DNA of 64,000 nucleotides from a bacterium (GTDB taxonomy: Bacteria > Patescibacteriota > Minisyncoccia > Phycocordibacterales > JAKAEA01): the NCBI GenBank assembly GCA_021818465.1, contig JAKAEA010000002.1, forward strand, positions 31,882 to 95,881. The letters are read 5' to 3'. Position numbers and translations under genes: made by a program. This document shows positions 6,126-54,256 of the stretch, one piece after another. How positions within the stretch are numbered: position 1 is the first letter of the stretch; every line of letters begins with the position of its first letter. Under the pieces are notes generated by a model. The model worked only from the letters and a program-made list of their open reading frames with translations. It searched no databases and had not been told where the DNA came from.

Positions 6126-6854
6126 TTATACACACGTTTTAAATTTTTCTAGAGCAGCAACAACTGACGTGTGGGCTAATGCTTCAGGAGAACCAAAAAT
6201 TGCTGATCCAATAATAAGGCGCGAGGCACCAGCTTCTACTAATACTCGAGCATGTTCCACATTCACGCCACCATCTACAGTAATAGGAATTTCTGGATGA
6301 GCACTATGAAACGCACGCACCCGATCAAACACCCGATCACCGGCAAATTCTTGCCCTTGATATCCCACTCGCTCAATTCCCATTAATTGAATACCGTTTA
6401 CGTCTTCTAGATACTCGGTTACCACCTCAAGAGGTGTTTCTAGAGCAAGTGCCAAACCAAATTCAAGAAACGTGGCGGCATCGCGGCGACTAGCCAAATG
6501 ACCAATAAGCTCTTTGAGGTGGTGCGGCGTGGCGCTCTCTAGATGCACAATAATTCGTGATGCACCCGCAGCAATCCAATCATCAATGATTGCCGGTGTC
6601 GGTCCCTGCACCATCAAATCAATTTCATAATCAAGTTGCTGCCACTGTGGTAACCCCTCCTGTTGATTAACTATGTTTGCAAAATGTTGGTCGCGGTGCA
6701 GATCTGCTCCTCTATAGGGCCAGCTACGTGACGGTACAAATCGACCATCGCAGACATCGAGCTGAACGAGCGGCACTCGACCAGCGACGAGCGCCACTTT
6801 TTCTTGTATTTCTTTAAAATCAGCCGGCAACATCGCCGGAATAATCTCCACCAT
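6126..6854 (-). CDS. rpe: Ribulose-phosphate 3-epimerase-like (TIM barrel)
   Basis: IIPAMLPADF...LDVCDGRFVP and ITVDGGVN resemble the Rpe catalytic and phosphate-binding motifs, with an insertion relative to the canonical HLDVMDxHFVPN. Confidence 0.7.
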   Translation of the reverse strand: MVEIIPAMLPADFKEIQEKVALVAGRVPLVQLDVCDGRFVPSRSWPYRGADLHRDQHFANIVNQQEGLPQWQQLDYEIDLMVQGPTPAIIDDWIAAGASRIIVHLESATPHHLKELIGHLASRRDAATFLEFGLALALETPLEVVTEYLEDVNGIQLMGIERVGYQGQEFAGDRVFDRVRAFHSAHPEIPITVDGGVNVEHARVLVEAGASRLIIGSAIFGSPEALAHTSVVAALEKFKTCV

Positions 6855-6866
6855 ATTCGTAGTATA

Positions 6867-7337
6867 TCAAACTCGTGTGCCGTGTTTCCTTTCAATATCA
6901 CGAATTTTTTCAATACGCCGCGCGTGACGTGGTTCGTTGGAAAATGCGGTTGAAAGCCAGATGTCCACAACCCGCTTGGCATCTGCCGGTGTAATAAATT
7001 TTGCACCCAGCGAAAGCACATTGGCATCATTGTGCTCGCGTAGTAGTTGAATAATTTCTTCTGATCCACCATAAAAAACACCGGCGCGCACATTGGCAAA
7101 TTTATTAGCAACCATAGCTTCACCCTGGCCAGACAAACCAATCACAATCCCCCGCGCTTCTGTTGGATTTTTAGCAACTTCTTGCGCGGCAAGGGAAATA
7201 AAATCGGGATAATCATCGTGCGGTTCGAATGTCGCTGGTCCCATATCAGAAACTTCAAAACCGGCGCTCCGCAGATACTCGCCGAGATGTTTTTTGAGGG
7301 TAAAACCCGCATGATCAGAAGCAAGATAAATTTTCAT
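6867..7337 (-). CDS. rpiB: Ribose-5-phosphate isomerase B
   Basis: MKIYLASDHAGFTLK N-terminus; RpiB/LacAB family; 156 aa. Confidence 0.9.
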   Translation of the reverse strand: MKIYLASDHAGFTLKKHLGEYLRSAGFEVSDMGPATFEPHDDYPDFISLAAQEVAKNPTEARGIVIGLSGQGEAMVANKFANVRAGVFYGGSEEIIQLLREHNDANVLSLGAKFITPADAKRVVDIWLSTAFSNEPRHARRIEKIRDIERKHGTRV

Positions 7338-10804: not shown

Positions 10805-13219
10805 TTACGCAATATCCAAGAGTTTTTGAATACCGCGTATTCTTTTTATTGCTTCAATAAGTATAAAACTTAGAATTGCCCCAATAATGATGAGCCAGAA
10901 AAAGAGCGGTGGCAATGGCGCGATAAAGAGACCCAGCCCGGCCACAATTGTTGAAAATGCCAATGAAAAGAGTAATGCAATAATGAGAATGCTTTTAGGT
11001 CGCACACTCCAACTAAACGGCCACGCTCGAATAGCAAGCAGTGTCGTAGCACCAAGGTAGATGAGTGACAAGTACACAATGGTTCTAATCGTATTAAACG
11101 GATACCGCATATGCCAAGCAATGACATATAAACTCATAGTAAAAATGTACGGAATAACGGCAATAAAGAACGCAGCAATGATGAGATTGCGAATATTCCA
11201 GCGAGCTGGATGATGAATAGGACTGGTATGATCAGTAGATATAGAAATGGTAACGAAGTCATTTGATAGAAGAATCAGAATAGCAATGAGCGGCGAGAGA
11301 ATGTATGAGTGTGTCAAAACAAAAATAACTGTCGCAATAAAAAGCGATTCCACTGATTTTATAACCTTATTTAAAGCCCACGTACGAATTCTAAAATACA
11401 CCCGGCGACCAGCCGTCACCACTCGCCGCACCCCCTCCAAACCAGGTGTCGTGAGAATGAAACTGGCTGCTTGCTTAGCAACCTCCGTTGCGCCCAACAC
11501 AGCAATGCCCACTTCCGCGCGGTGTAATGCCGGCGCATCATTCACACCATCACCAGTCATGCCAACTGAATGTCCAGCCTTCTGCAAAGCTTCAATAATA
11601 ATGAGCTTATCCTCGGGATATGCTTCAGCAAACACTACACCAGTAAGAGCGATGCTGGGGTTTTTATGTAATTCAGCAGGTGTAAACACGTCTCCCTCTA
11701 GTCCGAGACTGCGAGCAACCGCTTGCGCTGTTATTCGTCCATCGCCCGTAATCATTACCACGCGTACACCTAAACCGTTGAGTTCTTTAATTAATGCTGG
11801 AGCATCAGGACGAATCGGATCACTTAAACCAATAAGACCGACACACTCCTTAGGCGCACCAACCTCACCAGCAACAACAGCCAGAACTCGCAATCCATCA
11901 TCGCTCATGCGCGCGACATCCTGCAAAGCTTCGGGAGCGAAATGTACATCATTCGTCAGCAACAAATCCGGCAAACCCATTTGTATGTGTATATGCTTAT
12001 CTCCTTCAAGCACCTCAGCTTCTGTTCGCTTTGTTGATGGATCAAACGGTGTAAAACTCAAACGTTGCGGAGCGGTAAAACCTTCCGTTGCTGCTTTTTG
12101 TAAAATTGCCTGGTCAATAGAATTTTCATCAGCCGCATCGCTCGCTGCCGAGGCAAGCATGAACACTCTTTTTTCATCATTTGTACCATAATATTTTGTT
12201 GCCGAAACCGCTAGTTTATTTTGGGTCAACGTACCAGTTTTATCACTACAGAGCACATCAATAACCGCTGCTTCTTGCACAGCCCCCAATCGACGTACTA
12301 ACACGCGCCGATCATCACCATCACTACCACCATCTCCCGCATTAAGTTGGAGCGCGCCATAGGTTTGAGCAACCGCAAACATTGTCGGAAACGCAATAGG
12401 TACCGACATAAGCATAAGCACAATGACGTAATTAATAATTTGTAGTGCGGGCGCATGCACCAATACGCCAAAGATAATAACCCCGAGTGCTACCAACATG
12501 TTCAAAATAAAAAAGTATTTGATGATAGCAAATACCACCTTTTCCATATGCGTTGGTGGATGAGCCACTTGGAGAAGCTCTGTTGTTTTGCCGTAGCGCG
12601 TCGCTTTACCAATAGTGGTTACTGCCACCGTTGCTTCACCGCGGCGCACAATGCTACCTGAATACACCGTATCGTGTACGGTCACATCCTGTGGCAATGA
12701 TTCACCAGTCAAACTAGAAAGATCAACACTCACATTGCCATCTAAAATTTTTGCATCAGCAGGAACAACGTCACCAGCCCGAATACGCACCACATCCCCT
12801 GGTAAAAGTTCTCGCGCTGCCACCACCTTCCAATTACCACTACGATTAACACGCGCTTCAACTTGAATTGCTTTGCGTAATGTCGCCAACGCCTTATCAG
12901 CCGAGCGGCGCTGTAAAATATTGATAGCGCTGTTCACAAAAAGCAAAACAACGATAATGAGTGCCTCAACCTGATTACCTGAAAAATAGGTAATGACCAC
13001 CATGAGCTCCAAAAGCCACGGTAATGGACCCCAAAAATTTTTAAAGTAGAGCAGAAGTAAACTCTCATGATACTCCGGTAGCTCGTTCCATCCATAGCGT
13101 GTTCGTAACGCTGTAATATCCGAATCTTGTAAACCTGTATGCGTATTTTTAGGAGTACCGTTTGTCGTTAGCATCATTTCTAACCATACCAAATTTTTCA
13201 AGACAGCGTCAATAAACAA
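10805..13219 (-). CDS. P-type ATPase, type III-like (plasma-membrane H+/Mg2+ type)
   Basis: CSDKTGTLT phosphorylation site, TGES, MTGDGVNDAPAL hinge and 10 predicted TM segments. The N-terminus (WNELPEYHESLLLLYFKNFWGPLPWLLE) resembles P3A proton pumps. Confidence 0.88.
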   Translation of the reverse strand: MFIDAVLKNLVWLEMMLTTNGTPKNTHTGLQDSDITALRTRYGWNELPEYHESLLLLYFKNFWGPLPWLLELMVVITYFSGNQVEALIIVVLLFVNSAINILQRRSADKALATLRKAIQVEARVNRSGNWKVVAARELLPGDVVRIRAGDVVPADAKILDGNVSVDLSSLTGESLPQDVTVHDTVYSGSIVRRGEATVAVTTIGKATRYGKTTELLQVAHPPTHMEKVVFAIIKYFFILNMLVALGVIIFGVLVHAPALQIINYVIVLMLMSVPIAFPTMFAVAQTYGALQLNAGDGGSDGDDRRVLVRRLGAVQEAAVIDVLCSDKTGTLTQNKLAVSATKYYGTNDEKRVFMLASAASDAADENSIDQAILQKAATEGFTAPQRLSFTPFDPSTKRTEAEVLEGDKHIHIQMGLPDLLLTNDVHFAPEALQDVARMSDDGLRVLAVVAGEVGAPKECVGLIGLSDPIRPDAPALIKELNGLGVRVVMITGDGRITAQAVARSLGLEGDVFTPAELHKNPSIALTGVVFAEAYPEDKLIIIEALQKAGHSVGMTGDGVNDAPALHRAEVGIAVLGATEVAKQAASFILTTPGLEGVRRVVTAGRRVYFRIRTWALNKVIKSVESLFIATVIFVLTHSYILSPLIAILILLSNDFVTISISTDHTSPIHHPARWNIRNLIIAAFFIAVIPYIFTMSLYVIAWHMRYPFNTIRTIVYLSLIYLGATTLLAIRAWPFSWSVRPKSILIIALLFSLAFSTIVAGLGLFIAPLPPLFFWLIIIGAILSFILIEAIKRIRGIQKLLDIA

Positions 13220-13256: not shown

Positions 13257-14399
13257 TTACTGATACTGAATAAAAATAGGTCGCGGCCGCAACGAAAGAA
13301 TCTCTCGTGGCGTCATAAGGTGACTACCGTTGGCCACATCGTTTTTATAAAATATTTTTATACCGGCAAATTGAACTGGCTCGGGATAGATAATTTCGTT
13401 ATAAACCTTAGTCTTTTGTGCAGGTGTACCGAAACCATCCATATCCATAACTATCTCGGTTTGCGGTAATGGCGTAATATCCTGATAATTGGTCACCATA
13501 GACTTAGTAAAACGGTGCACCACAAGAAATTTTGGTGGCAAATTGTATTGTGTAACAAGGTGCGCAAGATATCGTGCCGCAAAATTTATATCCGAAGCAT
13601 CCAAAGAACCGATGGCGGTACCGGGGCGTTTAGGCGGCTGGAGAGCAAATTCTGGATCTAAAGCCAATTCAACATTCGGCAATTTTAGATATGGTTCAAG
13701 CAACGGTACCTCTTGCTCTACCGTACTCCAACCAACTTGTACATCTAAAATGACTAAACCGTGCACTTGGTTTGCTAACTGTATTGCTTCTTCAATACTG
13801 CTCGATGCCATGCGCAAGCGATACATACCATTTGGCCCTGGACTTCCCTGTGCTGAAACGGCTATGTAATCCAGAGCTGGTATCACCGGCGTAGCTGGGT
13901 CAGCAGCTTTCCATTGGGCCACCTGATTCATAAGGCGCGTAAGCATTTCCTGTGGCGGATATTGTCCCAAAATACCCATTGCTGGAGAAAGAAAATTACC
14001 ATAATACGCCACCACTCGATTAAATGGCAAAATAGCACCATACGCAGGATACGCTGCATGGGCAGGCCAAAGATATGTGGGCTGCCGCACAATAGTTGAG
14101 GAAGCCCGGGCAGCACTCGTGCTTGCTACAAAAGAAGGTGCGACTGGATTGTTCGCCAACTCTTCCATCAATTTGTTATACAAAGCTATATTCAGCTGTG
14201 GTTGAGGTGGTGGTGGGTCTATTTTGGGTGGATCTACTTTTATAGGGGGCACGTGGTAATACACCACTGGATTAAAAAAAGCCGCATGGTCGGCAACAAC
14301 TACAAACAAGACAACTACAATAAAGAGCACGGGCATCAGAAGTCCCCACACAATCGGATACTTTTCTTTTGATTTTTTACTCTTTTTAATAATAGACAA
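13257..14399 (-). CDS. Membrane-anchored hypothetical protein with Pro-rich linker and a possible hydrolase-like extracytoplasmic domain
   Basis: N-terminal basic stretch plus TM helix, PPIKVDPPKIDPPPPQPQ linker, then a 280-aa globular region with no motif I can name confidently. Confidence 0.45.
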   Translation of the reverse strand: MSIIKKSKKSKEKYPIVWGLLMPVLFIVVVLFVVVADHAAFFNPVVYYHVPPIKVDPPKIDPPPPQPQLNIALYNKLMEELANNPVAPSFVASTSAARASSTIVRQPTYLWPAHAAYPAYGAILPFNRVVAYYGNFLSPAMGILGQYPPQEMLTRLMNQVAQWKAADPATPVIPALDYIAVSAQGSPGPNGMYRLRMASSSIEEAIQLANQVHGLVILDVQVGWSTVEQEVPLLEPYLKLPNVELALDPEFALQPPKRPGTAIGSLDASDINFAARYLAHLVTQYNLPPKFLVVHRFTKSMVTNYQDITPLPQTEIVMDMDGFGTPAQKTKVYNEIIYPEPVQFAGIKIFYKNDVANGSHLMTPREILSLRPRPIFIQYQ

Positions 14400-14599
14400 A
14401 AGTATATCAATAAAGTGTCGTTATAGACATATTGGAAAACTAGCCAATATAAATTACTGCGATTATGGTGACGTTTCAAACGTTTAAAGCAAGACTGTTT
14501 GAAATGTTTTTTAACCTATATTGTCTATATAGGTGCATGGCCTAGTATCAAGGTAAAAAGTAATTATAGGTCGATAATTACTATAGTAATAGCTTAATT

Positions 14600-15553
14600 A
14601 TGAGTATTATGAATATAACGAACATACAACGAACTCTACTCGGGGTGTTTCTTGGTGGCATCATGATTCCAGCATTAACTTTTGCGGCAGGTGGAAGTGG
14701 TGGCGGTGGCGCTAGTGGTGGCGGGACAGGAGGAGTTGGTACGAGTGTAAACGTAAACACGGGTATCCAGCAACAAGATCAAACGCGTGATCGTATTCAA
14801 GATCCAACCACGCATACAGGCGATGAGCCACTACAGACGCGTGATCAGGATCGTGATCGTCTCTATCTTTATCAAAGTACCACCACAGTACCAATGGGAG
14901 CTGGACAAATGAATCAAAATCAAGGTGTTGTACCGAGTCTTGGTAGTCAATATCAATATGGACAACCGATGCCAACCGCAACCACGGGTCAAGGCACCCA
15001 AACCCAATATCAATATCGACTCCAAATAGACCCTGAGCATCTACAGATACAAGCAGGTAATGCTGCACAATTGCAGCAAATGGTGCAAACACGCGAACAA
15101 GAACTCACACAAGAAGCATCGACAACTCCCACACAAAACCGTACAGCGGTACAAAACGCAAATCGTACACGCCTTGCAGTCTATGCTGTGATGGCAGCTC
15201 AAAATATGCTTCCGGCGACTATCGGTCAACAGATGACGCAACTCGCCAATCAAATAAATGCCTCAATCCAAACTTCAACCACTCTTGAAGCGCAGATGGA
15301 GAATAGAGGTTTCTTGGAGCGACTCTTATTTGGTGGTGATACCAATTCCGCACAAACACTTGCACAAATATCCAACGAAAACCAAGCGAGAGTCCAATAC
15401 ATGATGCAGTTACTTTCACAAGCGAGTTCAACACCAGACGTGCAAGCACAACTCCAGACACAACTCCAGACCATACTACAAGAGCAGCAACAGCTTCAAA
15501 ACCTTGCTCAACAAGAACAAAACCGATGGGGCATCTTTAGTTGGCGTTTGTGA
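14600..15553 (+). CDS. Secreted Gln/Thr-rich low-complexity protein
   Basis: Signal/TM segment followed by a Gly-rich stretch (GGSGGGGASGGGTGG) and a long Q/T-rich region with repeated QxQxQ and LQxQ patterns. Terminator-like hairpin plus T-run downstream. Confidence 0.5.
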   Translation: MSIMNITNIQRTLLGVFLGGIMIPALTFAAGGSGGGGASGGGTGGVGTSVNVNTGIQQQDQTRDRIQDPTTHTGDEPLQTRDQDRDRLYLYQSTTTVPMGAGQMNQNQGVVPSLGSQYQYGQPMPTATTGQGTQTQYQYRLQIDPEHLQIQAGNAAQLQQMVQTREQELTQEASTTPTQNRTAVQNANRTRLAVYAVMAAQNMLPATIGQQMTQLANQINASIQTSTTLEAQMENRGFLERLLFGGDTNSAQTLAQISNENQARVQYMMQLLSQASSTPDVQAQLQTQLQTILQEQQQLQNLAQQEQNRWGIFSWRL

Positions 15554-15581
15554 TGTGGTCTACGCACCTCGTAAAAACTGC

Positions 15582-15612
15582 CGGGCACTCCCCGACAGTT
15601 TTTAGTAGCGAT
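15582..15612 (+). terminator. Imperfect rho-independent terminator for the 14600..15553 gene
   Basis: CTGCCGGGCACTCCCCGACAG imperfect stem-loop followed by TTTTT. Confidence 0.35.
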
Positions 15613-15769
15613 AATATGTGTACTGACTAAAAAAGAAATTAACATTCAAAAATACCATGATTAGAATATTATCCATTATTTTTCTCATATGTTTTGTACT
15701 GTACTTTTTTTTATTTCTATTTTTAAAGATTGTAATGTACACGCTCATCTTTATATAAATATATAAAAG

Positions 15770-15795
15770 GAGCACTCGCGAATAATCGAGTGCTC
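15770..15795 (-). terminator. Rho-independent terminator for the 15808..16437 gene
   Basis: Perfect 9-bp inverted repeat GAGCACTCG-N8-CGAGTGCTC immediately 3' of the stop codon, followed on the minus strand by a T/A-rich run (CCTTTTATATATTT). Confidence 0.45.
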
Positions 15796-15807
15796 AAAGA
15801 TTAACTA

Positions 15808-16437
15808 CTATTTCATAACAGTAGCCAATCGCAGCGTAGGATACTTGTCCTCATCCCAACAATCACGTATATGAATTTTGTCGAGACTAACACCAACACA
15901 GATACGAAAATGTGATTCTAAATCAACACAGCGAATGTAATTTTCCTTAAATAACCGTTCCTTCGTAGCGAGATAATGGCCGATTATGGTGTAAATCAAA
16001 ATTCGAGCAGTTGGTATTTCCTCGTCGTTCGAGAGAAGTGTCTGCTGTTCACTCCAGGTCTTTGATGCCGATCCATTGACTGGCCTCTTGCGAACCAACT
16101 GCCAACCAATTTCACCTTTGTTTTGAAAAAACACTGCTTCTTCGTAGTTATATTCTTGATGAAATAAGTCTAATTTTTGTACGGTACCATATATATTGGC
16201 AATTGATAGTGGGAAAACAGCAACGAGGACATGACTATCCTTGCAGGCATTCAACGTTTTCTCGCTGAATGGAATTTGAGCAAGCGCAGCAAACTGGCGC
16301 GTAGTAGGATTAACCCCGAAGTGTTTGGCGGCTGCCTCGATGCCGAAAAAGTTGCGACCCATAATCTTGCAGGCAGTCTCATGAGATGACATTTCGTAGT
16401 TCTCGTTTAGAACAGATTCTGAACTGATTGTAGACAT
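15808..16437 (-). CDS. Hypothetical protein (209 aa, no recognisable family) in an AT-rich island
   Basis: Clean ORF with a terminator hairpin 3' and a structured AT-rich leader 5'. Codon usage by eye is more AT-rich than the flanking housekeeping genes. Confidence 0.45.
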   Translation of the reverse strand: MSTISSESVLNENYEMSSHETACKIMGRNFFGIEAAAKHFGVNPTTRQFAALAQIPFSEKTLNACKDSHVLVAVFPLSIANIYGTVQKLDLFHQEYNYEEAVFFQNKGEIGWQLVRKRPVNGSASKTWSEQQTLLSNDEEIPTARILIYTIIGHYLATKERLFKENYIRCVDLESHFRICVGVSLDKIHIRDCWDEDKYPTLRLATVMK

Positions 16438-16666
16438 GACATTCTCCTTTGTTATTAACCCTGAAGGGTCCTGAACAAATCTCCACGTAACCTGGGAGAT
16501 GAAGGTCTCAGTCTCGTTTAAGATGAGCTTTTTGTATCCTTGTAAAGACGCAAAAAGCTCACCTCAAGCAATAATTTACTTTCAAAGAACAGCCATAAAA
16601 TACAATATATTTCATCATTTGACAACAACTCGTAAAAAATCAGTAATATTATTACTCTCAAAAGTA

Positions 16667-17392
16667 CTAATTCTTCATCGCCTGCCTTTTAAGCTGCATG
16701 GGCATTTTTTCTATCGCATATCGTAGCGCAGTTCTCGGCATGTTGGTTTTACGCGTCATCACAAAAGCAAACACTTCTTTCTGATGATGAATCGACGTCG
16801 CTTTTAACAGCCAGCCGTAACCTTTTTGAACCAAGTCTTCCCCACTACACAGTAACGTGTCTACTACTTCGAAAATATCTTTTAAATTATGTCGCGTTGC
16901 ATACACAGCATTACTGGTGGTAATAAAACTCACTGCCGAAGCTCGTTGCGCCCAAATATTTTTTGCGCCTGCCCACCCTTTTACGGTATCAATTAGTTCC
17001 GGATATTTCTCAAGCATAGGATGAATAATGTGTAGACAAAAATCGTCATCCTTGCTCCAGTTATCTATATAGGTAAACAGTCAACCTTCAAAAACTTTAA
17101 AATCTTCTTTTTTGAAACGACCAATGAGTGCACTAATCCATTGTATGGCAACTGTCGCCTCCTCGTTGTATTTATTTTCCAGTAGTTTTTCGCTTAAAGA
17201 AAAAATCTGCCCAGTATCCAAATTTCGAATTTGTTTGAAATATTTTTTTGCAATCGTACGAACCATAGGAGTTCGCACACCGTACATAACAACGTTTTCC
17301 TTAAAGAACTTTTGACTGCTGGCACGATGTTTGGCGGTGCTCTCTTTTAACAATTCCTGTCGAATAGTGTCTACAATATTCATAGATGTCAT
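16667..17392 (-). pseudogene. DNA alkylation repair enzyme (AlkD/AlkC HEAT-like family) interrupted by one in-frame TGA
   Basis: Track ORFs 17081..17392 (KFFKENVVMYGVRTPMVRTIAKKYFK) and 16667..17017 (GYGWLLKATS...RTALRYAIEKMP) are the N- and C-halves of one AlkD-like protein. Both are in the same frame; hand translation of 17018..17080 shows a single TGA at 17081-17083 and no other stop. Confidence 0.6.
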
Positions 17393-17555
17393 CTTCTAAC
17401 TTTTAAAAAAGAAATACGAATAAACACATATAAATATAAATAATTTTTCTTTGGTGTACTATTTTATATAGTATATATGTTTGCTGTATAAAATATAAAT
17501 CACTAGTAAAACAAAGGCGCCTAAACCGTCGGCATAGTTCGATAAAAAGTGCTGT

Positions 17556-17643
17556 TGGCGGAGGGTAAGAGATTCGAACTCTTGGTGGGTTTCCCCACAC
17601 ACGCTTTCCAAGCGTGCGCACTAGACCACTATGCGAACCCTCC
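17556..17643 (-). tRNA. tRNA-Ser (anticodon GGA), class II with long variable arm, CCA encoded
   Basis: Hand-folded cloverleaf: acceptor GGAGGGT/ACCCTCC; D-stem GCA/TGC; anticodon stem CACGC/GCGTG with loop TTGGAAA; variable stem GTGGG-GAAA-CCCAC; T-arm AAGAG-TTCGAAT-CTCTT; discriminator G; CCA. Confidence 0.85.
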
Positions 17644-17666
17644 TTTAAAATCCGCCGCTTACTATA

Positions 17667-18500
17667 TCATCGAAATGTGACGGTGGAAAGAATTTGATAG
17701 AACAGTGTGGAAAGTTGACTTTCAAAAGTCTGATTAATTTGATTCATTTTTTGAAATGCTTGTTGACTTGGAGCATAGACGCCCGGATCAGTTACCGCTG
17801 CTTGTAAATCGAATTGATAACAGGTGTTGTGCTGGTACGCAGCAACGAGCGTGCCAAAGGCGCAGCCGCCGGCCCAACAACCGCCATACATATTTGGAAA
17901 CTGATAAAAATTGACGGGCGGCGCGCTTGGCACAGCAGTGGGTGGCACGATGGAAATTTGTGTCGGCGTAGTCGTGGGAACTGAGATGCCTGACGTTGTC
18001 ACACCTTGACTTACCGCATTGGCTGCAGACATACAATCAGCAAATGTTGGTGAGGTGGTTGCGGCAATTACTATCGCTGCTTGGCGTACCGTCGTACTGG
18101 CTGGATATTGCGACGAGGGCAACGTTAAGACAACTGTCGCCGCTGGATTAATTGGTAAAAAACCTTTTATACTTTTTATATCGGCAGGTTTGGTGTACGC
18201 ATGCATAATGCCCGAGGGATAATCAAACGAAAATCCGGCAGCAGCAATAGTGTACGTTCCCCACGACTCTCCGGTACCAATAGGTACCGTACCGGTAGCT
18301 GTTGATGGAATAGAAAATGGTGCGCCGATTTTAACGCGAACACCAGAAACGGTTGCGTAGCTACCAACTGCAGGTTGCGTCGGTGGTACTGATTGCGAGG
18401 ACGGCTTTGACGAAGTTGGTTGTACGGAATTAGTAAGAAACAACCAGCCGAGTAAGATAGCGATGATGACAATAACGAGAATGGCGAGAATTTTTTTCAT
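17667..18500 (-). CDS. Membrane-anchored secreted hypothetical protein (Ser/Thr/Pro-rich)
   Basis: N-terminal TM anchor (MKKILAILVIVIIAILLGWLFL), then a low-complexity S/T/P-rich linker and a Cys-containing C-terminal domain. Confidence 0.45.
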   Translation of the reverse strand: MKKILAILVIVIIAILLGWLFLTNSVQPTSSKPSSQSVPPTQPAVGSYATVSGVRVKIGAPFSIPSTATGTVPIGTGESWGTYTIAAAGFSFDYPSGIMHAYTKPADIKSIKGFLPINPAATVVLTLPSSQYPASTTVRQAAIVIAATTSPTFADCMSAANAVSQGVTTSGISVPTTTPTQISIVPPTAVPSAPPVNFYQFPNMYGGCWAGGCAFGTLVAAYQHNTCYQFDLQAAVTDPGVYAPSQQAFQKMNQINQTFESQLSTLFYQILSTVTFR

Positions 18501-32905: not shown

Positions 32906-33580
32906 ATGCGAATGCTTATTGCGGACGACGATGCTACGGTGCGAGAATCCTTACGACGCGCTTTTGAAGAAGAACGAATTGTGGTTGACATTGCTACCGA
33001 CGGCGAGCGAGCTTCATATTTGGGACGAATCAATGAATACGATATTGCTATTATAGATCTCATTATGCCCAATAAAGACGGCTGCACCGTGTGTAGCGAC
33101 TTGCGCCACCGTGGACGCACCTTCCCCATTCTCGTACTTTCCGTCAATGCCACCACTGAACAGAAAGTGCGACTCTTAAATGTTGGCGCCGATGATTATA
33201 TGACAAAACCATTTTCCTTTCGGGAAATTTCTGCACGTGTTAAAGCCCTCACTCGTCGGCCACAACCGATTGAACCTGACGTCCTAGAAGTCGGCGATTT
33301 GCGCGTAGATACAGCTCAGCAAAAAGTGACTCGCGGTAAACGTGATATTTACCTAACACGTAAAGAATTTTCTCTCTTGGAATTTTTAATGCGGCGACAC
33401 GGACAAGTAATTTCGCGCGGTAGTATTATGGAACATATTTGGAACGCTGACGCAGATCCATTCTCAAACACCATAGAAGCCCACATTCTTAATATTCGAA
33501 AAAAAATTAGTGATACCAAACGTAATCGCCTCGTTCACACTGTTCCTGGTCGCGGTTACAAAGTAGACTGTACATCTTGA
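32906..33580 (+). CDS. OmpR-family response regulator
   Basis: Receiver domain (LIADDD...DLIMPNKDG...KPF) plus winged-helix Trans_reg_C (LTRKEFSLLEFLMRRHGQVISRGSIMEHIW). Confidence 0.9.
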   Translation: MRMLIADDDATVRESLRRAFEEERIVVDIATDGERASYLGRINEYDIAIIDLIMPNKDGCTVCSDLRHRGRTFPILVLSVNATTEQKVRLLNVGADDYMTKPFSFREISARVKALTRRPQPIEPDVLEVGDLRVDTAQQKVTRGKRDIYLTRKEFSLLEFLMRRHGQVISRGSIMEHIWNADADPFSNTIEAHILNIRKKISDTKRNRLVHTVPGRGYKVDCTS

Positions 33581-33583
33581 AAA

Positions 33584-34825
33584 ATGAGACACGACTCCAT
33601 ACTCAGCGTACTTTTGATTTCATTTATTATAGTAATTATTTTCGGTGACAGTTTAGCTATCACGCACTCGGTTTTAGTTGGTTATAGTGGTGTACATTTT
33701 TGGCTACTATCAAGTTTGCTACCTTTAGCCGTTGGATTATTGTGGTTGTCAAAAAGCGGTAAACCGGAACTTGCCGCACACGGTTTTATTTTGACACTTA
33801 TAGCTATAACAACATATGTGAGTTTCATCTGGGGTGCAAATCTTCAACATGCCCTGCTCGGTTCAGTCCTTGTTATTATTATCGCCAACGTGCTTATTGG
33901 TACCACATACAGTGTCATTGTTGCCACTATTATTTCTATCATCACTGTTATTCTTTGGGATTTACAAATTAGAGCAATCATTAAACCGCACTGGTTTTGG
34001 CAATACCCGTTACAATTTCATCACGCTACTGATTTTATTATTTTATTTTTTAGTATTACTGCCGTTCTGTGGTTATCCAATAGAGAAACTGAGCGAGTGG
34101 CACATACCGCGCACACGCTCTATCGTTTTGCTAAAGTTGGTAAACTCTCATCTGGTATTTTTCATGATCTTGCTAGTCCCCTTACCGCAGTAACGCTCAG
34201 CATAGAATATCTTAAACACCATCGCGACGATGCCTCTGCAGATCTCGAATCACATATCACGACCGCCCTCCGCGCGACAGATGAAATGCGAATGCTCATT
34301 ACCGCCATCAGTAAAAATCTTCATGGTCAAACTGATACGGTGAGTGTTTTTTCTGTATCTAAAGAAATTGGTGATGCAATAGCTGTATTAGCCTACAAAA
34401 GTCGCTTAGCTGGCGTACACATACAATATCGCAACAGCGATGCTTATTTTCTCCTCGGAAACTCGTTACGTTTTCATCAGGCAATTATTAATGTGTTGGC
34501 AAACGCTATTGATGCATGTGAGCGTAACGAGACAGGAACCACTCGGTTGTGCACGATTACGTGCACTGAAGAATCGAGGACCGTCTGGGTTGTCATTTCA
34601 AATAGTGGTCCAGAAATTCCCGAAGCAATACGACAATATATTTTTGATCCATTCTTTACCACAAAAACAAAAGGATACGGCAACGGCATAGGTCTATCTA
34701 TTACTAAAGAAATTGTAGAAAAAGAATTCGGTGGAAAGGTGCTGGTTGAAAGCACGCCAGCCAGTACAACATTTTATTTAGGATTTCCTAGTACTAAAGA
34801 TATTCGACTTCCCGTTCGAGCGTAA
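33584..34825 (+). CDS. Sensor histidine kinase (multi-TM sensor, HisKA, HATPase_c)
   Basis: Six N-terminal TM helices, H-box HDLASPLTAV, N-box and G-box (GNGIGLSITKEIVE). Confidence 0.85.
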   Translation: MRHDSILSVLLISFIIVIIFGDSLAITHSVLVGYSGVHFWLLSSLLPLAVGLLWLSKSGKPELAAHGFILTLIAITTYVSFIWGANLQHALLGSVLVIIIANVLIGTTYSVIVATIISIITVILWDLQIRAIIKPHWFWQYPLQFHHATDFIILFFSITAVLWLSNRETERVAHTAHTLYRFAKVGKLSSGIFHDLASPLTAVTLSIEYLKHHRDDASADLESHITTALRATDEMRMLITAISKNLHGQTDTVSVFSVSKEIGDAIAVLAYKSRLAGVHIQYRNSDAYFLLGNSLRFHQAIINVLANAIDACERNETGTTRLCTITCTEESRTVWVVISNSGPEIPEAIRQYIFDPFFTTKTKGYGNGIGLSITKEIVEKEFGGKVLVESTPASTTFYLGFPSTKDIRLPVRA

Positions 34826-38649: not shown

Positions 38650-39933
38650 ATGTTTTCTGAGCTACGAAACCGCACGTATCGTTTTTTGCGCTGGAGCGAG
38701 CGTTATACAAAAATGGACATGATCTACTTGACATCTGGAAGTTTTTGGGCCGTATTTGGACAATTCTCTGCAGCCATTATTGCCTTTGGACTAGCAATTG
38801 CCGTAGCGCGTTTCGTATCCAAAGACGTCTACGGTACCTATAAATACGTTTTAGCTATCGTTTCAGTTGTCGCTACCCTTTCGCTAAGTGGCATTGGTCA
38901 GGCCGTCTTTCAATCCATCACTCGCGGCTTCCGTCGCTCGCTCTCCGACGGATTCTGGGCAAATTTACGCTGGAGTTTTTTAGTTTTTATAATCACTCTT
39001 ACTGTTGGTGGATACTACCTTTTCCAAGGCAATCAAACACTTGGTTTGGGTATTTTACTTGGTGGCTGTATAACACCATTTCTTTCCGGCTTTAATTTAT
39101 ACACATCACTCTTCTCTGGTGAAAAAGATTTTCGACGCGCAGCATGGTATGGCGACGTTGTCACCAACATCATTCCCGCACTCACCTTGATAGCGGTTGC
39201 CCTTATTGCTCCCACTGCACTCAATTTGGTTATCGCCTATTTTCTCGCAAACCTTGCTGCTGCTGCATATAGTTATTGGCGCGGCACACGACATTATCGT
39301 TCAACAGCCGATGCTGCACATGATCCTGATCTACTTTCGTATGGCAAACACCTAAGTTTAATGGCCGTCTTAAGTGGCATCGCTGGCAATATTGACCAAC
39401 TGCTACTTTTTCACTTTGGTGGCGCTATTGATCTTGCTATCTATAATTTTGCCATTGCTATTCCTGATCAAGCAAAAGGCCCTCTTAAGCAACTCGATAC
39501 GATGACACAAGCTCGTTTTGTTAATCGAACTACTCATGACATTCATACGAGTTTGCGTAACAAAATGCTGTGGCTCACTGCAACAAGTATTATTACTATA
39601 AGTGTTTACGTTATAGTCGCTCCATTCATCTACCAATTATTTTTCCCTGCGTACAGCATTGCTGCTGCGTATTCTCAAATTTATGCACTATCATTATTCT
39701 CAATGATTATAAGTCCTGCTGCTTCATATCTTTCAGCAAAAAAACGAGTACGAGCTCTGTATGTTAATACTTTCGGCAGTTCCATCTTACATATCGGACT
39801 TATGGTAATTGGTGTAGTTTGGTTTGGTTTATGGGGTTTAATTATTGCTCGCGTTTTCATTCGACTTGGTGGTGCTCTGTTATCACTTGGACTCTATTAC
39901 CGAACGACGCGTCTTGAACGAAAAACAATATGA
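38650..39933 (+). CDS. Polysaccharide biosynthesis protein / oligosaccharide flippase (Wzx, MOP superfamily)
   Basis: 427 aa with about 12-14 TM helices and Wzx-like topology. The stop overlaps the start of the downstream methyltransferase (ATGA). Confidence 0.6.
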   Translation: MFSELRNRTYRFLRWSERYTKMDMIYLTSGSFWAVFGQFSAAIIAFGLAIAVARFVSKDVYGTYKYVLAIVSVVATLSLSGIGQAVFQSITRGFRRSLSDGFWANLRWSFLVFIITLTVGGYYLFQGNQTLGLGILLGGCITPFLSGFNLYTSLFSGEKDFRRAAWYGDVVTNIIPALTLIAVALIAPTALNLVIAYFLANLAAAAYSYWRGTRHYRSTADAAHDPDLLSYGKHLSLMAVLSGIAGNIDQLLLFHFGGAIDLAIYNFAIAIPDQAKGPLKQLDTMTQARFVNRTTHDIHTSLRNKMLWLTATSIITISVYVIVAPFIYQLFFPAYSIAAAYSQIYALSLFSMIISPAASYLSAKKRVRALYVNTFGSSILHIGLMVIGVVWFGLWGLIIARVFIRLGGALLSLGLYYRTTRLERKTI

Positions 39934-43712: not shown

Positions 43713-44811
43713 GAATAACCATTTCTACTGAAATAGCCTCGACCTGCCGCCGCGCCTCGACTCTATTATACATACGAGCGTTCATAATATGCAGCTGTGG
43801 CGCGCGACGTGTATGATCAAATACGACTCGATTTTTTTCGCTCCGCGGCGGCTGCTCCTGTTCACTCATTGGACCGAGAATATCGACCGTCGGGACATTA
43901 AAAGCTTCGGCTATATACAATGGACCAGTATCAACACTTACAAAAATTTTTGCTTGAGCAATAAGCGCCTTGAGTTCATCTAAAGAAAAAAGTTCGCTGA
44001 CGTTTATAACGCCACGCTGTCCATGAAGCGCTGCTACCATAGCTGCAACTTCTTCTGTATCACGTTTACCGCCAATAATAATAACCGGTATATGGCGAGC
44101 AATAAAATATTCAGCCACCTGCGCAAAACGTTCGGCTGGCCAATTTTTTATTTTGTTTCCTGCAGACGGTGATATAAGAGCAAATTCACCTCGCATCACG
44201 TTTTTGTCGTGCAGAAATTTTTCTATGGTTAACCGTGCAGCATCAGAATAGCCGAGTCGCTTGGTTGTATCGTTATTGGTTATACTAAGCGGCTCCAACA
44301 GTCGCATATACTCTCGAGGAGCATACTGATACATTGTATGAGGACGTGTTTCGGCAACGTGACGCAGTAACACATATGGTTTTGTTTCATACGGACTCCA
44401 ACCGCCTTCTACTCGCGGCACAGCAATCACACGCACACCACCGAGATACATCGCCGACAGCGCTCGAAAATCCGGCACAACAGTGCACCCAAAATCAAAA
44501 TTCTCTTGCCGAATCAATCGGATTAATTCTTTCGTTGAAAATTTGTCGTAAGAAATATACGCATCAACATCGTGGTTATATGCGAGCACCTCGCGATTAA
44601 GCGAATTACCAACAACAGTAAGTAGTACATGAGGATATGTTGCTTTCAGTGCCCGAAACACTGGCGTAGTGCACACCATGTCCCCTAACTTTGCTCCCTG
44701 AAACACAATAACTTTTTGAGGGGTTTGTACCTCGCCTTTAGCAAATCCACGAAATGGAAAAAAAACGAAACTTTTTAATAACAAAAATATATTTTGAAAT
44801 CTAGAATTCAT
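43687..44811 (-). CDS. Glycosyltransferase family 9 (heptosyltransferase-like)
   Basis: VIVFQGAKLGDMVCTTPVFRALKATYPHV N-terminal motif and C-terminal VDTGPLYIAEAFNVPTVDILGP motif. Confidence 0.7.
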   Translation of the reverse strand: MNSRFQNIFLLLKSFVFFPFRGFAKGEVQTPQKVIVFQGAKLGDMVCTTPVFRALKATYPHVLLTVVGNSLNREVLAYNHDVDAYISYDKFSTKELIRLIRQENFDFGCTVVPDFRALSAMYLGGVRVIAVPRVEGGWSPYETKPYVLLRHVAETRPHTMYQYAPREYMRLLEPLSITNNDTTKRLGYSDAARLTIEKFLHDKNVMRGEFALISPSAGNKIKNWPAERFAQVAEYFIARHIPVIIIGGKRDTEEVAAMVAALHGQRGVINVSELFSLDELKALIAQAKIFVSVDTGPLYIAEAFNVPTVDILGPMSEQEQPPRSEKNRVVFDHTRRAPQLHIMNARMYNRVEARRQVEAISVEMVIHEIVHILG

Positions 44812-51345: not shown

Positions 51346-52479
51346 TCAACAAAAAAATGTCGTATCCATCCTCTCGGCAAGCAGGTCCCAATCATACGCC
51401 ACAACCAGCTTCTTGCCGTTTGCAATCAGTGTCGCCTGTAGCGTAGCGTCATGCATTATTTTTTGTACTGCCGTAGCAATACTGTGAGGATTATGCGGCT
51501 GACAAAAAACACCAGTTTCTCCATCATGCAAAAAATCAGGAATGCCCCCAACCGGCGTACCCACAATCGGCACACCCGCAGCCATTGCTTCAATAAAAAC
51601 ATTACCCATCCCCTCTGAACGTGAGGGGCGAATAAAAATATCGCTGGCCGAAAGCCACACGGGCAGCTCACCATGAGGCACCTGCCCAGCAAAAAAAACT
51701 CTAGTAGATAGACCGAGAGCGACCGTCTGTTCGCGTAATTTTTTTTCTAACACACCCGTACCAAGTATATAGAGGCCAACATGTTCAGGTAGTATAGCGA
51801 GAGCGCGTAGAATGTCTTCTGTGCCATTCTTTTCTACTAATCGGGAAACCGTGATGAGACGCACGGTCACGTGCGGCAACTGTTGAAGAATTTTTTGTTG
51901 TTCGATGTGCGCGATAGTGGCACCGAATTTTTTTACATCAACACCATTAGGAATAATTTCTATTGGTGCTCGTGCCCCCATATCGTGCGCAAAATGTCGT
52001 AGATATGAAGAAATTGCCTGAATTCGATGGGCCTGGCGAAAAATTTGCGTGAAGAGTGGCCACACAATCATCGCTCGATGTTTGGGTCGCTCGAGCGGAT
52101 CTCCTTCCTGAAGCGACAAAAAATACGGCACCTGAGGATACAACATTTTAAAAAAAATAGCAGCAAAACCACTGAAACTAGCCATAATACTCCACGTTGC
52201 CGTAAAAGACTTTTTTGTATGCAGTCGGCGCGCCAGATACAGTGCGGCAAATGGATATAGTATTTTATAGAAATACCCCCGCCCACCAAGTCGGTGTACA
52301 CGCACCGCCCCCACCACTTCGTCTCTCGACTCACGACCAGTAAGATTAATGGTGATCATCTCAAATTCATACCCACGTCGCGCCAGACGATCGGTAATTT
52401 CTTTAACAGCAATTTCCGCCCCGCCCACCCACGGCAAGTACGCAGTAGAAAAAATAAGAATTCGTTTATTCGCCACCAT
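51346..52479 (-). CDS. Glycosyltransferase family 4
   Basis: LPWVGGAEIAVKEITDRLARRGYE; C-terminal RPSRSEGMGNVFIEAMAAGVPIVGTPVGG. Internal Met at about 52479 is the likely start; the track ORF runs to 52551. Confidence 0.8.
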   Translation of the reverse strand: MVANKRILIFSTAYLPWVGGAEIAVKEITDRLARRGYEFEMITINLTGRESRDEVVGAVRVHRLGGRGYFYKILYPFAALYLARRLHTKKSFTATWSIMASFSGFAAIFFKMLYPQVPYFLSLQEGDPLERPKHRAMIVWPLFTQIFRQAHRIQAISSYLRHFAHDMGARAPIEIIPNGVDVKKFGATIAHIEQQKILQQLPHVTVRLITVSRLVEKNGTEDILRALAILPEHVGLYILGTGVLEKKLREQTVALGLSTRVFFAGQVPHGELPVWLSASDIFIRPSRSEGMGNVFIEAMAAGVPIVGTPVGGIPDFLHDGETGVFCQPHNPHSIATAVQKIMHDATLQATLIANGKKLVVAYDWDLLAERMDTTFFC

Positions 52480-54256
52480 TGAGAATATTGCGCAACACTG
52501 ATTCCGGCACTTCTTGTGTCTCGTGTACTGGGCGTGTATTTTTTTCGGCAACTGTAGCAGGTGTGTCAGATTTTTTTTCTTCTTTTTTAGGCGCCGCGAC
52601 AGATGTGGGGACGGCTCGTGACAGTGCTGATGCCGTTGACTGTTTTTCTTTTACTGCTGCTTCAATTGCGTTTCGTAACGCATTTTTATTTTCTGTCGAT
52701 AGCGTTTTTGTAGTAGCATTCGACGTGAAAGGATGCGGCGTCGGGGAACTAGGGCGAGGCTGTGACGGTGGTACCACAGGTGGTTGATGCGGTTTGACCT
52801 GCTGCTGTGGCCGCGCACCATCTGCCGCCGGTCGCTCAAATTTTCTATCACGTGAGCCACGGTTTTCCTGAGAAGAACCAATACCATTTTGCTGCTGACG
52901 GGAACTTGGTGGCGACACTATTGGCGCATGCCAATCGCGAATTATTTTCTCAACATCTGCGCGCGGCCGAGCAAAAAATTCTCGCGAAAAGGTAATCACA
53001 TCTTCCTTGAAAGAGACCGTGGGCGCATCAATGGGTGGCAAGGTGCGTGCCGAAAATGGCTGCGATGTGACACCATCAATCATCAACTTTAAATAAATCT
53101 GTACGAATCCCAAATTCACCAAATCCTCCTTAGTAAAAGTGGGGAAAAATTCTTTCTCCAGTACCTCGGCATCGTAGGCACCAACACGAAACACAATCAT
53201 GGTGCCCACGTTGCCAAACACAGCCGCTCGCACCTCTTCACTCATTTGCTCAATATACTGATGGGCAATCGTGAGATTGAGTTTGTATTTGCGGGCTTCT
53301 GAAAGAATATCAGCGAATGACTCATTGGCGAACGATTGAAATTCATCCACATACAAATAGAAATTCGGCAATGCTTTTTGCGAAGCGCCAGACACGTCAG
53401 CACGCGACATTGCCGCCAAATAAATTTTGGTAATAATCATTGAGCCAAGCAAGTTGGCATTCATTTCCCCCACTCGCCCCTTAGATAGGTTAATAATAAT
53501 AATTTTTCGCTCATCCATCATTGCGCGTAAATCAAATGTGGACTTTGATTGACCGATAATGTTGCGTACCAGCGGATTAGACACAAATTGACCGACTTTA
53601 TTCTGAATTGCCGCAGTTGCATCGGTAGCAAGTCGGTCGTTATATTTAGCAAATTCATCTGTCCAAAATGCTTTTACCGAAGGATCGGTAACCTTTTCCA
53701 CCACTTTATTTCTATAAGCCTTGTCAGCAAACATTCTGTTAACGCCCAAAATAGTCGCGCCAGGATATTCCAAAAGAGCCAGGAGTGCATTGTTGAGAAT
53801 GTATTCCATGCGCGCACTCCATGCATCCACCCAAATTTTCTTAAACGCACTCATAAGACCACTCACCACCAAGTGGCGCTTATCAAAACCAACATCTTCC
53901 ATAACGTTAAAAGCGATCGGATATTCCAGATCAAATGGCGCGAAATAGAGCACATCCTTCATCCGCTCCGGCGGAATGTAATCAAGCAGAAGTTCAGCTG
54001 TTTTACCGTGCGGATCAATAAAAGCCAATCCTTCACCAGCAGCAATATCTTGAATGGCCATATTTTCTAATACCGTCGACTTACCCATACCGGTTTTGCC
54101 GATGATGTAGGTATGACGTGAACGATCATCGCTCTTAATGCCAAAAGGGATACGCTGACCACGGCTATCTGTTTCAGCAAAATAGGTTATCCGATTACCA
54201 TTAATAACTGGCGGCGTCTTTTTATTTTCATGGTTACGAGGAGGCATACGATACAA
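52466..54256 (-). CDS. TraG/TraD/VirD4-family or HerA/FtsK-like P-loop ATPase (type-IV-secretion-coupling-protein-like), soluble, with Pro/Gln-rich disordered C-terminal tail
   Basis: Walker A YIIGKTGMGKST; downstream hydrophobic-DE Walker B (LYVDEF); about 430-aa ATPase core followed by about 160 aa of low-complexity P/Q/S tail. No TM helices and no other T4SS genes nearby. Confidence 0.55.
   Translation of the reverse strand: MYRMPPRNHENKKTPPVINGNRITYFAETDSRGQRIPFGIKSDDRSRHTYIIGKTGMGKSTVLENMAIQDIAAGEGLAFIDPHGKTAELLLDYIPPERMKDVLYFAPFDLEYPIAFNVMEDVGFDKRHLVVSGLMSAFKKIWVDAWSARMEYILNNALLALLEYPGATILGVNRMFADKAYRNKVVEKVTDPSVKAFWTDEFAKYNDRLATDATAAIQNKVGQFVSNPLVRNIIGQSKSTFDLRAMMDERKIIIINLSKGRVGEMNANLLGSMIITKIYLAAMSRADVSGASQKALPNFYLYVDEFQSFANESFADILSEARKYKLNLTIAHQYIEQMSEEVRAAVFGNVGTMIVFRVGAYDAEVLEKEFFPTFTKEDLVNLGFVQIYLKLMIDGVTSQPFSARTLPPIDAPTVSFKEDVITFSREFFARPRADVEKIIRDWHAPIVSPPSSRQQQNGIGSSQENRGSRDRKFERPAADGARPQQQVKPHQPPVVPPSQPRPSSPTPHPFTSNATTKTLSTENKNALRNAIEAAVKEKQSTASALSRAVPTSVAAPKKEEKKSDTPATVAEKNTRPVHETQEVPESVLRNILNGGE

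Follow-up and report, generated by a model that had tools for sequence, protein, structure and literature searches.

A single in-frame TGA at a conserved tryptophan codon of an AlkD-family gene in a Patescibacteriota contig, probably a recent nonsense mutation

We present here an AlkD-family gene (alkD) from an uncultured bacterium of the Patescibacteriota that is interrupted by one in-frame TGA at a position where related proteins carry tryptophan. The gene lies in a 64,000-nucleotide stretch of contig JAKAEA010000002.1 (assembly GCA_021818465.1), which is called the window below. The interruption is most probably an ordinary, recent TGG-to-TGA nonsense mutation in a genome that uses the standard code, and it would leave alkD as a young pseudogene or a strong hypomorph.

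Reading frame and homologues

The AlkD-family (PF08713) coding frame extends over 16667..17392 on the minus strand and consists of 241 sense codons and a terminal TAG, with one internal stop. Its translation reads MTSMNIV…FKVFEG*LFTYIDNWSKDDDFCLHIIHPMLEKYPEL…QAMKN*. The internal stop is a TGA at codon 104 (17081..17083, minus strand; tca on the plus strand), which replaces Trp104 and is followed by a C (UGA-C). Before it lies an N-terminal ORF of 103 codons (17084..17392, minus strand; 17081-17392 in the ORF list), which, by the helix map of an orthologue model, would comprise the helices at the N-terminus together with the initial HEAT-like repeats, and no catalytic residue. The C-terminal ORF of 116 codons (16667..17017, minus strand) runs from the internal Met126 and carries W194. 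Both ORFs share one frame and lie 63 nt apart, separated by 21 codons outside either ORF (17018..17080, minus strand) that contain no further stop and no in-frame ATG, GTG, or TTG. Gene callers start the N-terminal ORF at Met4 (100 aa), and the split is annotated as 100 plus 116 aa. No Shine-Dalgarno-like sequence is visible upstream of Met126. The first-pass annotation had placed exactly one stop in this frame, at 17081-17083, and our translation agrees. Its hand translation of the gap was right in that the codons are sensible and wrong in one residue, giving LFYYIDNW where the sequence encodes LFTYIDNW (T, not Y). It gave no strand for the gene, which is minus.

A member of the AlkD family is expected to have an uninterrupted coding sequence, whereas this one is broken by the TGA at codon 104. 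With the stop masked, the protein matches PF08713 (DNA_alkylation) over the full profile (positions 1-213 of 213; E = 8.9e-53; 179.6 bits against a cut-off of 21). Because the joined protein spans the whole profile, the two ORFs are halves of one domain and not chance neighbours. We found 7732 homologues among 5.8 billion proteins. Almost all are single proteins of ~240 aa, and many come from Patescibacteria/CPR metagenome-assembled genomes (MAGs), for example of Moranbacteria, Nomurabacteria, Uhrbacteria, and Magasanikbacteria. The profile match and the homologue lengths bear out the earlier description of the two ORFs as same-frame N- and C-terminal halves of one HEAT-like glycosylase; the alternative named alongside it, that the halves are independent genes, does not fit homologues of this length. 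The gene callers' 100-aa and 116-aa ORFs speak for two independent or split functional genes, but the homologues are nearly all single proteins, and the 21 codons between the ORFs hold the catalytic residues W112 and D116 and offer no start codon. We regard this reading, taken together with selenocysteine at the UGA (discussed below), as highly improbable.

The residue lost at codon 104

In a first alignment, the column of codon 104 was Trp in all 22 homologues. Of a set of 40 homologues, 36 have Trp in this column, 2 have Ile, 1 has Phe, and 1 has a gap; none has Gly or Cys. An alignment with orthologues had been proposed earlier as a way to learn whether Trp, Gly, or Cys is expected here, and the answer is Trp. 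This excludes reading the codon as Gly (code 25) or as Cys or selenocysteine. The closest intact homologue, P0001 (DNA locus L001; Logan run ERR14790938), shares 87% protein identity with alkD, and the DNA alignment of the two has a mean column identity of ~90%. Around codon 104, L001 reads GGT TGG TTA and alkD reads GGT TGA CTG. As judged from this alignment, the lesion is a single G-to-A transition in the third base of the Trp codon (TGG to TGA). L001 thus carries a sense codon one substitution away from the TGA, and the catalytic residues lie downstream of it, as in a nonsense pseudogene.

The TGA was seen in no other member of the family. The exact DNA pattern spanning codon 104 had no match in metagenome contigs, and the 103-aa N-terminal product is absent from recorded proteins. 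No alkD of the same species was found in an independent sample; protein-guided scans of genome and metagenome contigs returned relatives of at most 67% identity, all intact. For the nearest relative, GCA_021785065.1 (S2 82% identical), the loci compared reach GAPDH, ~9 kb short of the expected position of alkD.

Selenocysteine at the UGA was considered and rejected. Folding the 121 nt that surround the stop gave no structured signal (z = -1.2) and no SECIS-like hairpin, and there is no Cys in the codon 104 column. An Rfam E-value scan returned only the tRNA and chance hairpin matches, with no read-through element or SECIS.

Catalytic residues and predicted effect

The catalytic residues of AlkD, which we take to be Trp109, Asp113, and Trp187, align in both sequence and profile alignments of the Bacillus cereus enzyme with W112 (17057-17059), D116 (17045-17047), and W194 (16811-16813) of the window protein, all on the minus strand. 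W112 is invariant among the 40 homologues, D116 is present in 39, and W194 is invariant or nearly so. All three are encoded downstream of the stop, and W112 and D116 fall in the 21 codons outside both ORFs. An AlphaFold2 model was made of the intact orthologue P0001, not of the window protein (pLDDT 91.6). Its best matches in the PDB are AlkD chains (TM normalised to target, 0.83-0.86, with 0.85 for B. cereus AlkD; rmsd, 2.6-3.1 Å), with corresponding TM values of 0.64 for AlkD2 and 0.40 for AlkC. The model has the alpha-alpha superhelix of this family, and the position of the stop lies in the helix that immediately precedes the catalytic one. Sequence, fold, and catalytic residues together assign the gene to AlkD among the HEAT-like-repeat glycosylases.

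The proposed course of events is as follows. The third base of the Trp104 codon would have changed from G to A, converting TGG to TGA. Release factor 2 would terminate translation there, truncating AlkD after 103 residues and so removing the catalytic helix in full as well as the third catalytic Trp. A protein re-initiated at Met126 would also be without two of the three catalytic residues. Neither the N-terminal nor the C-terminal fragment should therefore be an active glycosylase, given a stop upstream of all three residues and two of these in the stretch that neither ORF covers. The expected outcome is loss of function, making alkD a pseudogene of recent origin or, in the most favourable case, a strong hypomorph. 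A minor share of the ribosomes may insert Trp at the UGA and produce the wild-type protein.

Age of the lesion and selection

Apart from the TGA, the alkD frame contains no second lesion, neither stop nor frameshift. Relative to P0001, dN/dS is 0.12 upstream of the stop and 0.17 downstream, at a dS of ~0.43. A relative-rate test counted 14 unique amino acid changes on the window branch and 7 on the P0001 branch, a difference that is not significant (chi2, 2.3); 8 of the 14 lie upstream of the stop. Neither the relative-rate test nor the half-by-half dN/dS comparison detected relaxed selection or decay in alkD, and both have little power for a recent event. The data are consistent with a young lesion, and its recency is inferred from them.

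The first-pass annotation had offered four explanations: recent pseudogenisation, a sequencing or assembly error, stop-codon read-through, and local UGA recoding. The first is the best reading, with TGG in the nearest homologue, no other lesion in the frame, and TGA serving as a normal stop in this genome. From the wider list, an assembler error proves unlikely, and a genome-wide UGA-to-Trp code is excluded for this contig.

Reproducibility of the base

The same alkD, TGA included, is present in three assemblies, from NCBI, ENA, and Logan. NCBI contig DAIEME010000002.1 (GCA_027341405.1) is 100% identical to the window over 12.6 kb, ENA contig k141_2213002 (ERZ27237538) is 100% identical over 17,337 bp, and the Logan contig from SRR13299515 carries the same alkD with the TGA. 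Because all three share the identical base, an assembler artefact is unlikely. Their near-identity and accession pattern suggest a common read set, and the three probably derive from SRR13299515, being independent by assembler and not by sample.

A sequencing or consensus artefact, or a minority variant, could have turned a true TGG into the assembled TGA. The assembled codon is one base away from the expected one, the source is a metagenome with co-occurring related populations whose contigs disagree at the neighbouring tRNA-Ser gene, and all three assemblies probably go back to one run. Set against this, three assemblers give the same base, the surrounding 17 kb are 100% identical between assemblies, and substitution errors in consensus sequences are rare. 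We judge such an artefact quite unlikely.

Use of TGA in the contig

All TAA/TAG-delimited frames of the window were checked for coding segments joined by TGA, and three candidates emerged: alkD, 6126-7337, and 32906-34825. The second was rejected as a split gene, as it consists of two genes, RpiB (PF02502, profile 1-138 of 138) followed by Rpe. The third was rejected likewise and comprises an OmpR-type response regulator followed by a histidine kinase; in the regulator, the Trans_reg_C match covers profile positions 2-76 of 77, and the domain ends 5 residues before the TGA. The TGA in alkD is thus the only true in-frame TGA in the window. Among 52 non-overlapping ORFs of the window, 33 end in TAA, 10 in TAG, and 9 in TGA, and 8 of these 9 are real gene ends. 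ATGA stop/start overlaps occur at 39930-39933 and 44808-44811. The window contains 248 TGG codons. The first-pass annotation had recommended a genome-wide count of in-frame TGAs in conserved genes. With the contig extended to 82 kb from neighbouring loci, there are 291 TGG codons and a single in-frame TGA (1 of 292 Trp positions). Genes that are uninterrupted on the 82 kb include rpoB (1095 aa) and those for S2, EF-Ts, L25, L31, and an RF1-type release factor.

The search for tRNA-Trp, tRNA(UCA), and prfB covered the ~82 kb reached, a part of the genome, and found none of the three there. The sole release-factor gene in the 82 kb is the RF1-like gene, located just beyond the window start (L022, 17699-18679). 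Its protein is short (326 aa) and scores 349-355 bits, below the NCBIfam prfA cut-offs of 400-423.

Reassignments of UGA to Trp and to Gly are both known in Patescibacteriota, and in the patescibacterial family JAKLIH01 the UGA-to-Trp change is marked by the presence of a tRNA(UCA), the absence of RF2, and gene ends free of UGA (PMC13092985). A genome- or lineage-wide reassignment, to Trp (code 4) or Gly (code 25), would suit a host of Patescibacteria type and, for Trp, the aligned residue. However, TGA ends at least 8 genes in the window, some after complete terminal domains, as in RpiB and the OmpR-type regulator, or in ATGA overlaps, so that the absence of UGA from gene ends seen in JAKLIH01 does not hold here. 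In addition, TGA occupies only 1 of 292 Trp positions, and Gly is absent from the aligned column. TGA is a normal stop here and is not subject to code-4, code-25, or selenocysteine decoding; genome-wide recoding is refuted for this contig, and as an account of alkD we give it next to no credence. The earlier judgement that genome-wide UGA-to-Gly recoding is unlikely was sound, as Gly never appears in the column and TGA ends at least 8 genes.

Read-through of the UGA

UGA is the leakiest stop codon, and tRNA-Trp(CCA) is its classical near-cognate reader. UGA-C was reportedly found by Poole, Brown and Tate in 1995 to be the weakest termination signal in Escherichia coli, and Lovett et al. are said to have described UGA read-through by tRNA-Trp in Bacillus subtilis in 1991. 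Near-cognate Trp and Cys tRNAs are also stated to decode UGA in E. coli, with the fourth base modulating termination efficiency (PMC5373646). Of the 9 ORFs in the window that end in TGA, alkD alone has a C after the stop, and the remaining 8 have A or T. As it is a Trp codon that was lost, leakage would give back the wild-type enzyme, and it is plausible that low-level read-through by tRNA-Trp would restore some of it, as background leakiness and not as programmed recoding. An intact remaining frame and a weak UGA-C context are also what would be expected if the allele kept some function in this way.

A functionally retained leaky stop would go further, with UGA read as Trp often enough for selection to keep a low-expression AlkD allele. 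The reading could be done by tRNA-Trp(CCA) at the weak UGA-C, by a tRNA-Trp with a 4-bp anticodon stem, or by a suppressor tRNA(UCA). Trp is the one codon at which near-cognate UGA read-through restores the wild type, the TGA-C context is unique among the TGA-ended ORFs of the window, the frame has no second lesion, and the downstream dN/dS is 0.17. Many bacterial phyla have UGA-reading tRNA-Trp variants whose anticodon stem is 4 bp long, and 0.3% of standard-code genomes carry suppressor tRNAs (PMC13092985). However, dN/dS values at a dS of ~0.43 mostly record history before the mutation and say nothing on selection since. No promoting structure (z = -1.2) or Rfam match was found around the stop, no tRNA-Trp or tRNA(UCA) lies within the 82 kb reached, and no other family member carries TGA at codon 104. 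We consider selective retention of this kind unlikely.

More far-reaching still is the idea that a standard-code lineage functionally reads UGA as Trp at selected sites, as an ambiguous-decoding intermediate toward a UGA-to-Trp reassignment of the JAKLIH01 type. Such decoding could be carried out by a suppressor tRNA(UCA) or by a tRNA-Trp relaxed through a 4-bp anticodon stem, and the alkD TGA would then be among the first Trp codons to drift. We hold this to be very unlikely.

Flanking regions and other features of the window

A tRNA-Ser(GGA) gene (17556..17643, minus strand) lies 164 nt upstream of alkD and marks a junction at which contig versions differ. Between it and the alkD start are two overlapping putative promoters (17461..17499, minus strand), identified as matches to the sigma-70-like consensus. 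On the alkD side of the junction, ENA contig k141_2213002 is 100% identical to the window (from position 1 to ~17627 and on into S2, EF-Ts, RF1, and rpoB). Beyond the tRNA, its syntenic Big_7, LemA, HtpX, and 277-aa genes are only 70-77% identical to those of the window, and the two sequences also differ by an insertion of 33 nt in the ENA contig and by T/C at 17628. A second contig of the same ENA assembly, k141_397853 (L025), has the window-type far side and other DNA after the 5' half of the tRNA. The Logan contig ends at 17627, one base before the T/C difference inside the tRNA. In k141_397853, a second copy of the tRNA 3' end (CCCTCACCCTCCGCC) is present ~190 nt downstream (L025, ~10940-11125) and resembles an att-type duplication or a further piece of a tRNA gene. 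One of the contigs, the window's or the ENA one, may be a chimera joined at the tRNA; alternatively, strains living together may have one flank in common and differ strongly on the other, or may recombine there. The conclusion on alkD is unaffected by this junction, because the evidence for TGA as a stop lies on both sides of it.

Directly downstream of alkD is a 209-aa ORF (15808-16437, minus strand) without a Pfam match. It has 203 homologues at E ≤ 1e-5, with 46-60% identity among the matches listed, many of them from Patescibacteria MAGs. The homologues are typically ~254 aa long and have a variable N-terminal extension that is missing in the window copy. The ORF represents an uncharacterised conserved family. 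The spacer between this gene and alkD contains a perfect 10-bp inverted repeat (GAGCTTTTTG … CAAAAAGCTC; 16525-16560), which gave chance Rfam microRNA matches and may be a terminator or an operator.

The G+C content is 0.41 at 14000-18000 and 0.44-0.48 in neighbouring windows, and L001, the locus of the closest alkD homologue, adjoins a transposase-type HTH gene and otherwise has neighbours different from those of alkD. The G+C dip, the neighbours of L001, and the lack of a close orthologue of the 209-aa gene (59% identity at most) suggest that alkD is part of an accessory region, perhaps one gained by horizontal transfer. A 317-aa ORF (14600-15553, plus strand) is rich in Gln, Thr, and Gly, of low complexity, and without a Pfam match; it has an N-terminal hydrophobic segment and ends in TGA. 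Farther along, a VirD4/TraD-type coupling-protein homologue (52466-54256, minus strand; weak NCBIfam and Pfam T4SS-DNA_transf matches) adjoins glycosyltransferase genes and may belong to a system for type IV secretion or for the uptake of DNA.

Significance

As a probable recent nonsense mutation, the TGA in alkD carries small biological weight: one accessory DNA-repair gene in one uncultured bacterium would be inactivated or have its output greatly reduced. Annotators would do well to join the two ORFs into a single entry, marked either as a pseudogene or as a gene containing an internal stop, and not to cite this contig in support of a non-standard genetic code. The case would gain interest if the rest of the genome had more TGAs at Trp positions or an unusual tRNA-Trp, given the UGA-to-Trp change elsewhere in the phylum.

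Comparison with known systems

Among characterised proteins, the closest counterpart is the alkylpurine DNA glycosylase AlkD of B. cereus (PDB 3BVS, 3JX7, and 5CL3-5CLB). Both proteins match PF08713 over its full length, the alignment of the window protein with AlkD begins at residue 7, and the catalytic Trp-Asp-Trp positions are kept as W112, D116, and W194. A profile of the window subfamily searched against the PDB matches AlkD chains only (E, 6.5e-16). The two differ in that sequence identity is ~20% and the window copy is stopped at codon 104, a position that is Trp in the Patescibacteria subfamily and not Trp in B. cereus AlkD. AlkD2 of Streptococcus mutans (PDB 4X8Q and 3L9T) and AlkC (PDB 5VHV and 5VI0) share the superfamily fold but give a much weaker structural match and no sequence-level PDB match.

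The UGA read-through of B. subtilis and E. coli (PMC5373646) resembles the situation in alkD in that tRNA-Trp is the near-cognate reader and the base after the stop matters; it was measured in those model bacteria, whereas for alkD it is a putative event. With the UGA-to-Trp code of table 4 (Mycoplasmatales, Hodgkinia, Zinderia, and JAKLIH01), alkD shares a UGA at a conserved Trp position, and it does so in a Patescibacteria genome. In table 4 genomes, however, UGA makes up a large share of the Trp codons (48% in Hodgkinia; PMC2704378), in contrast to 1 of 292 here. Genes in reassigned genomes do not end in UGA (PMC13092985), whereas in this contig TGA regularly serves as a terminator.
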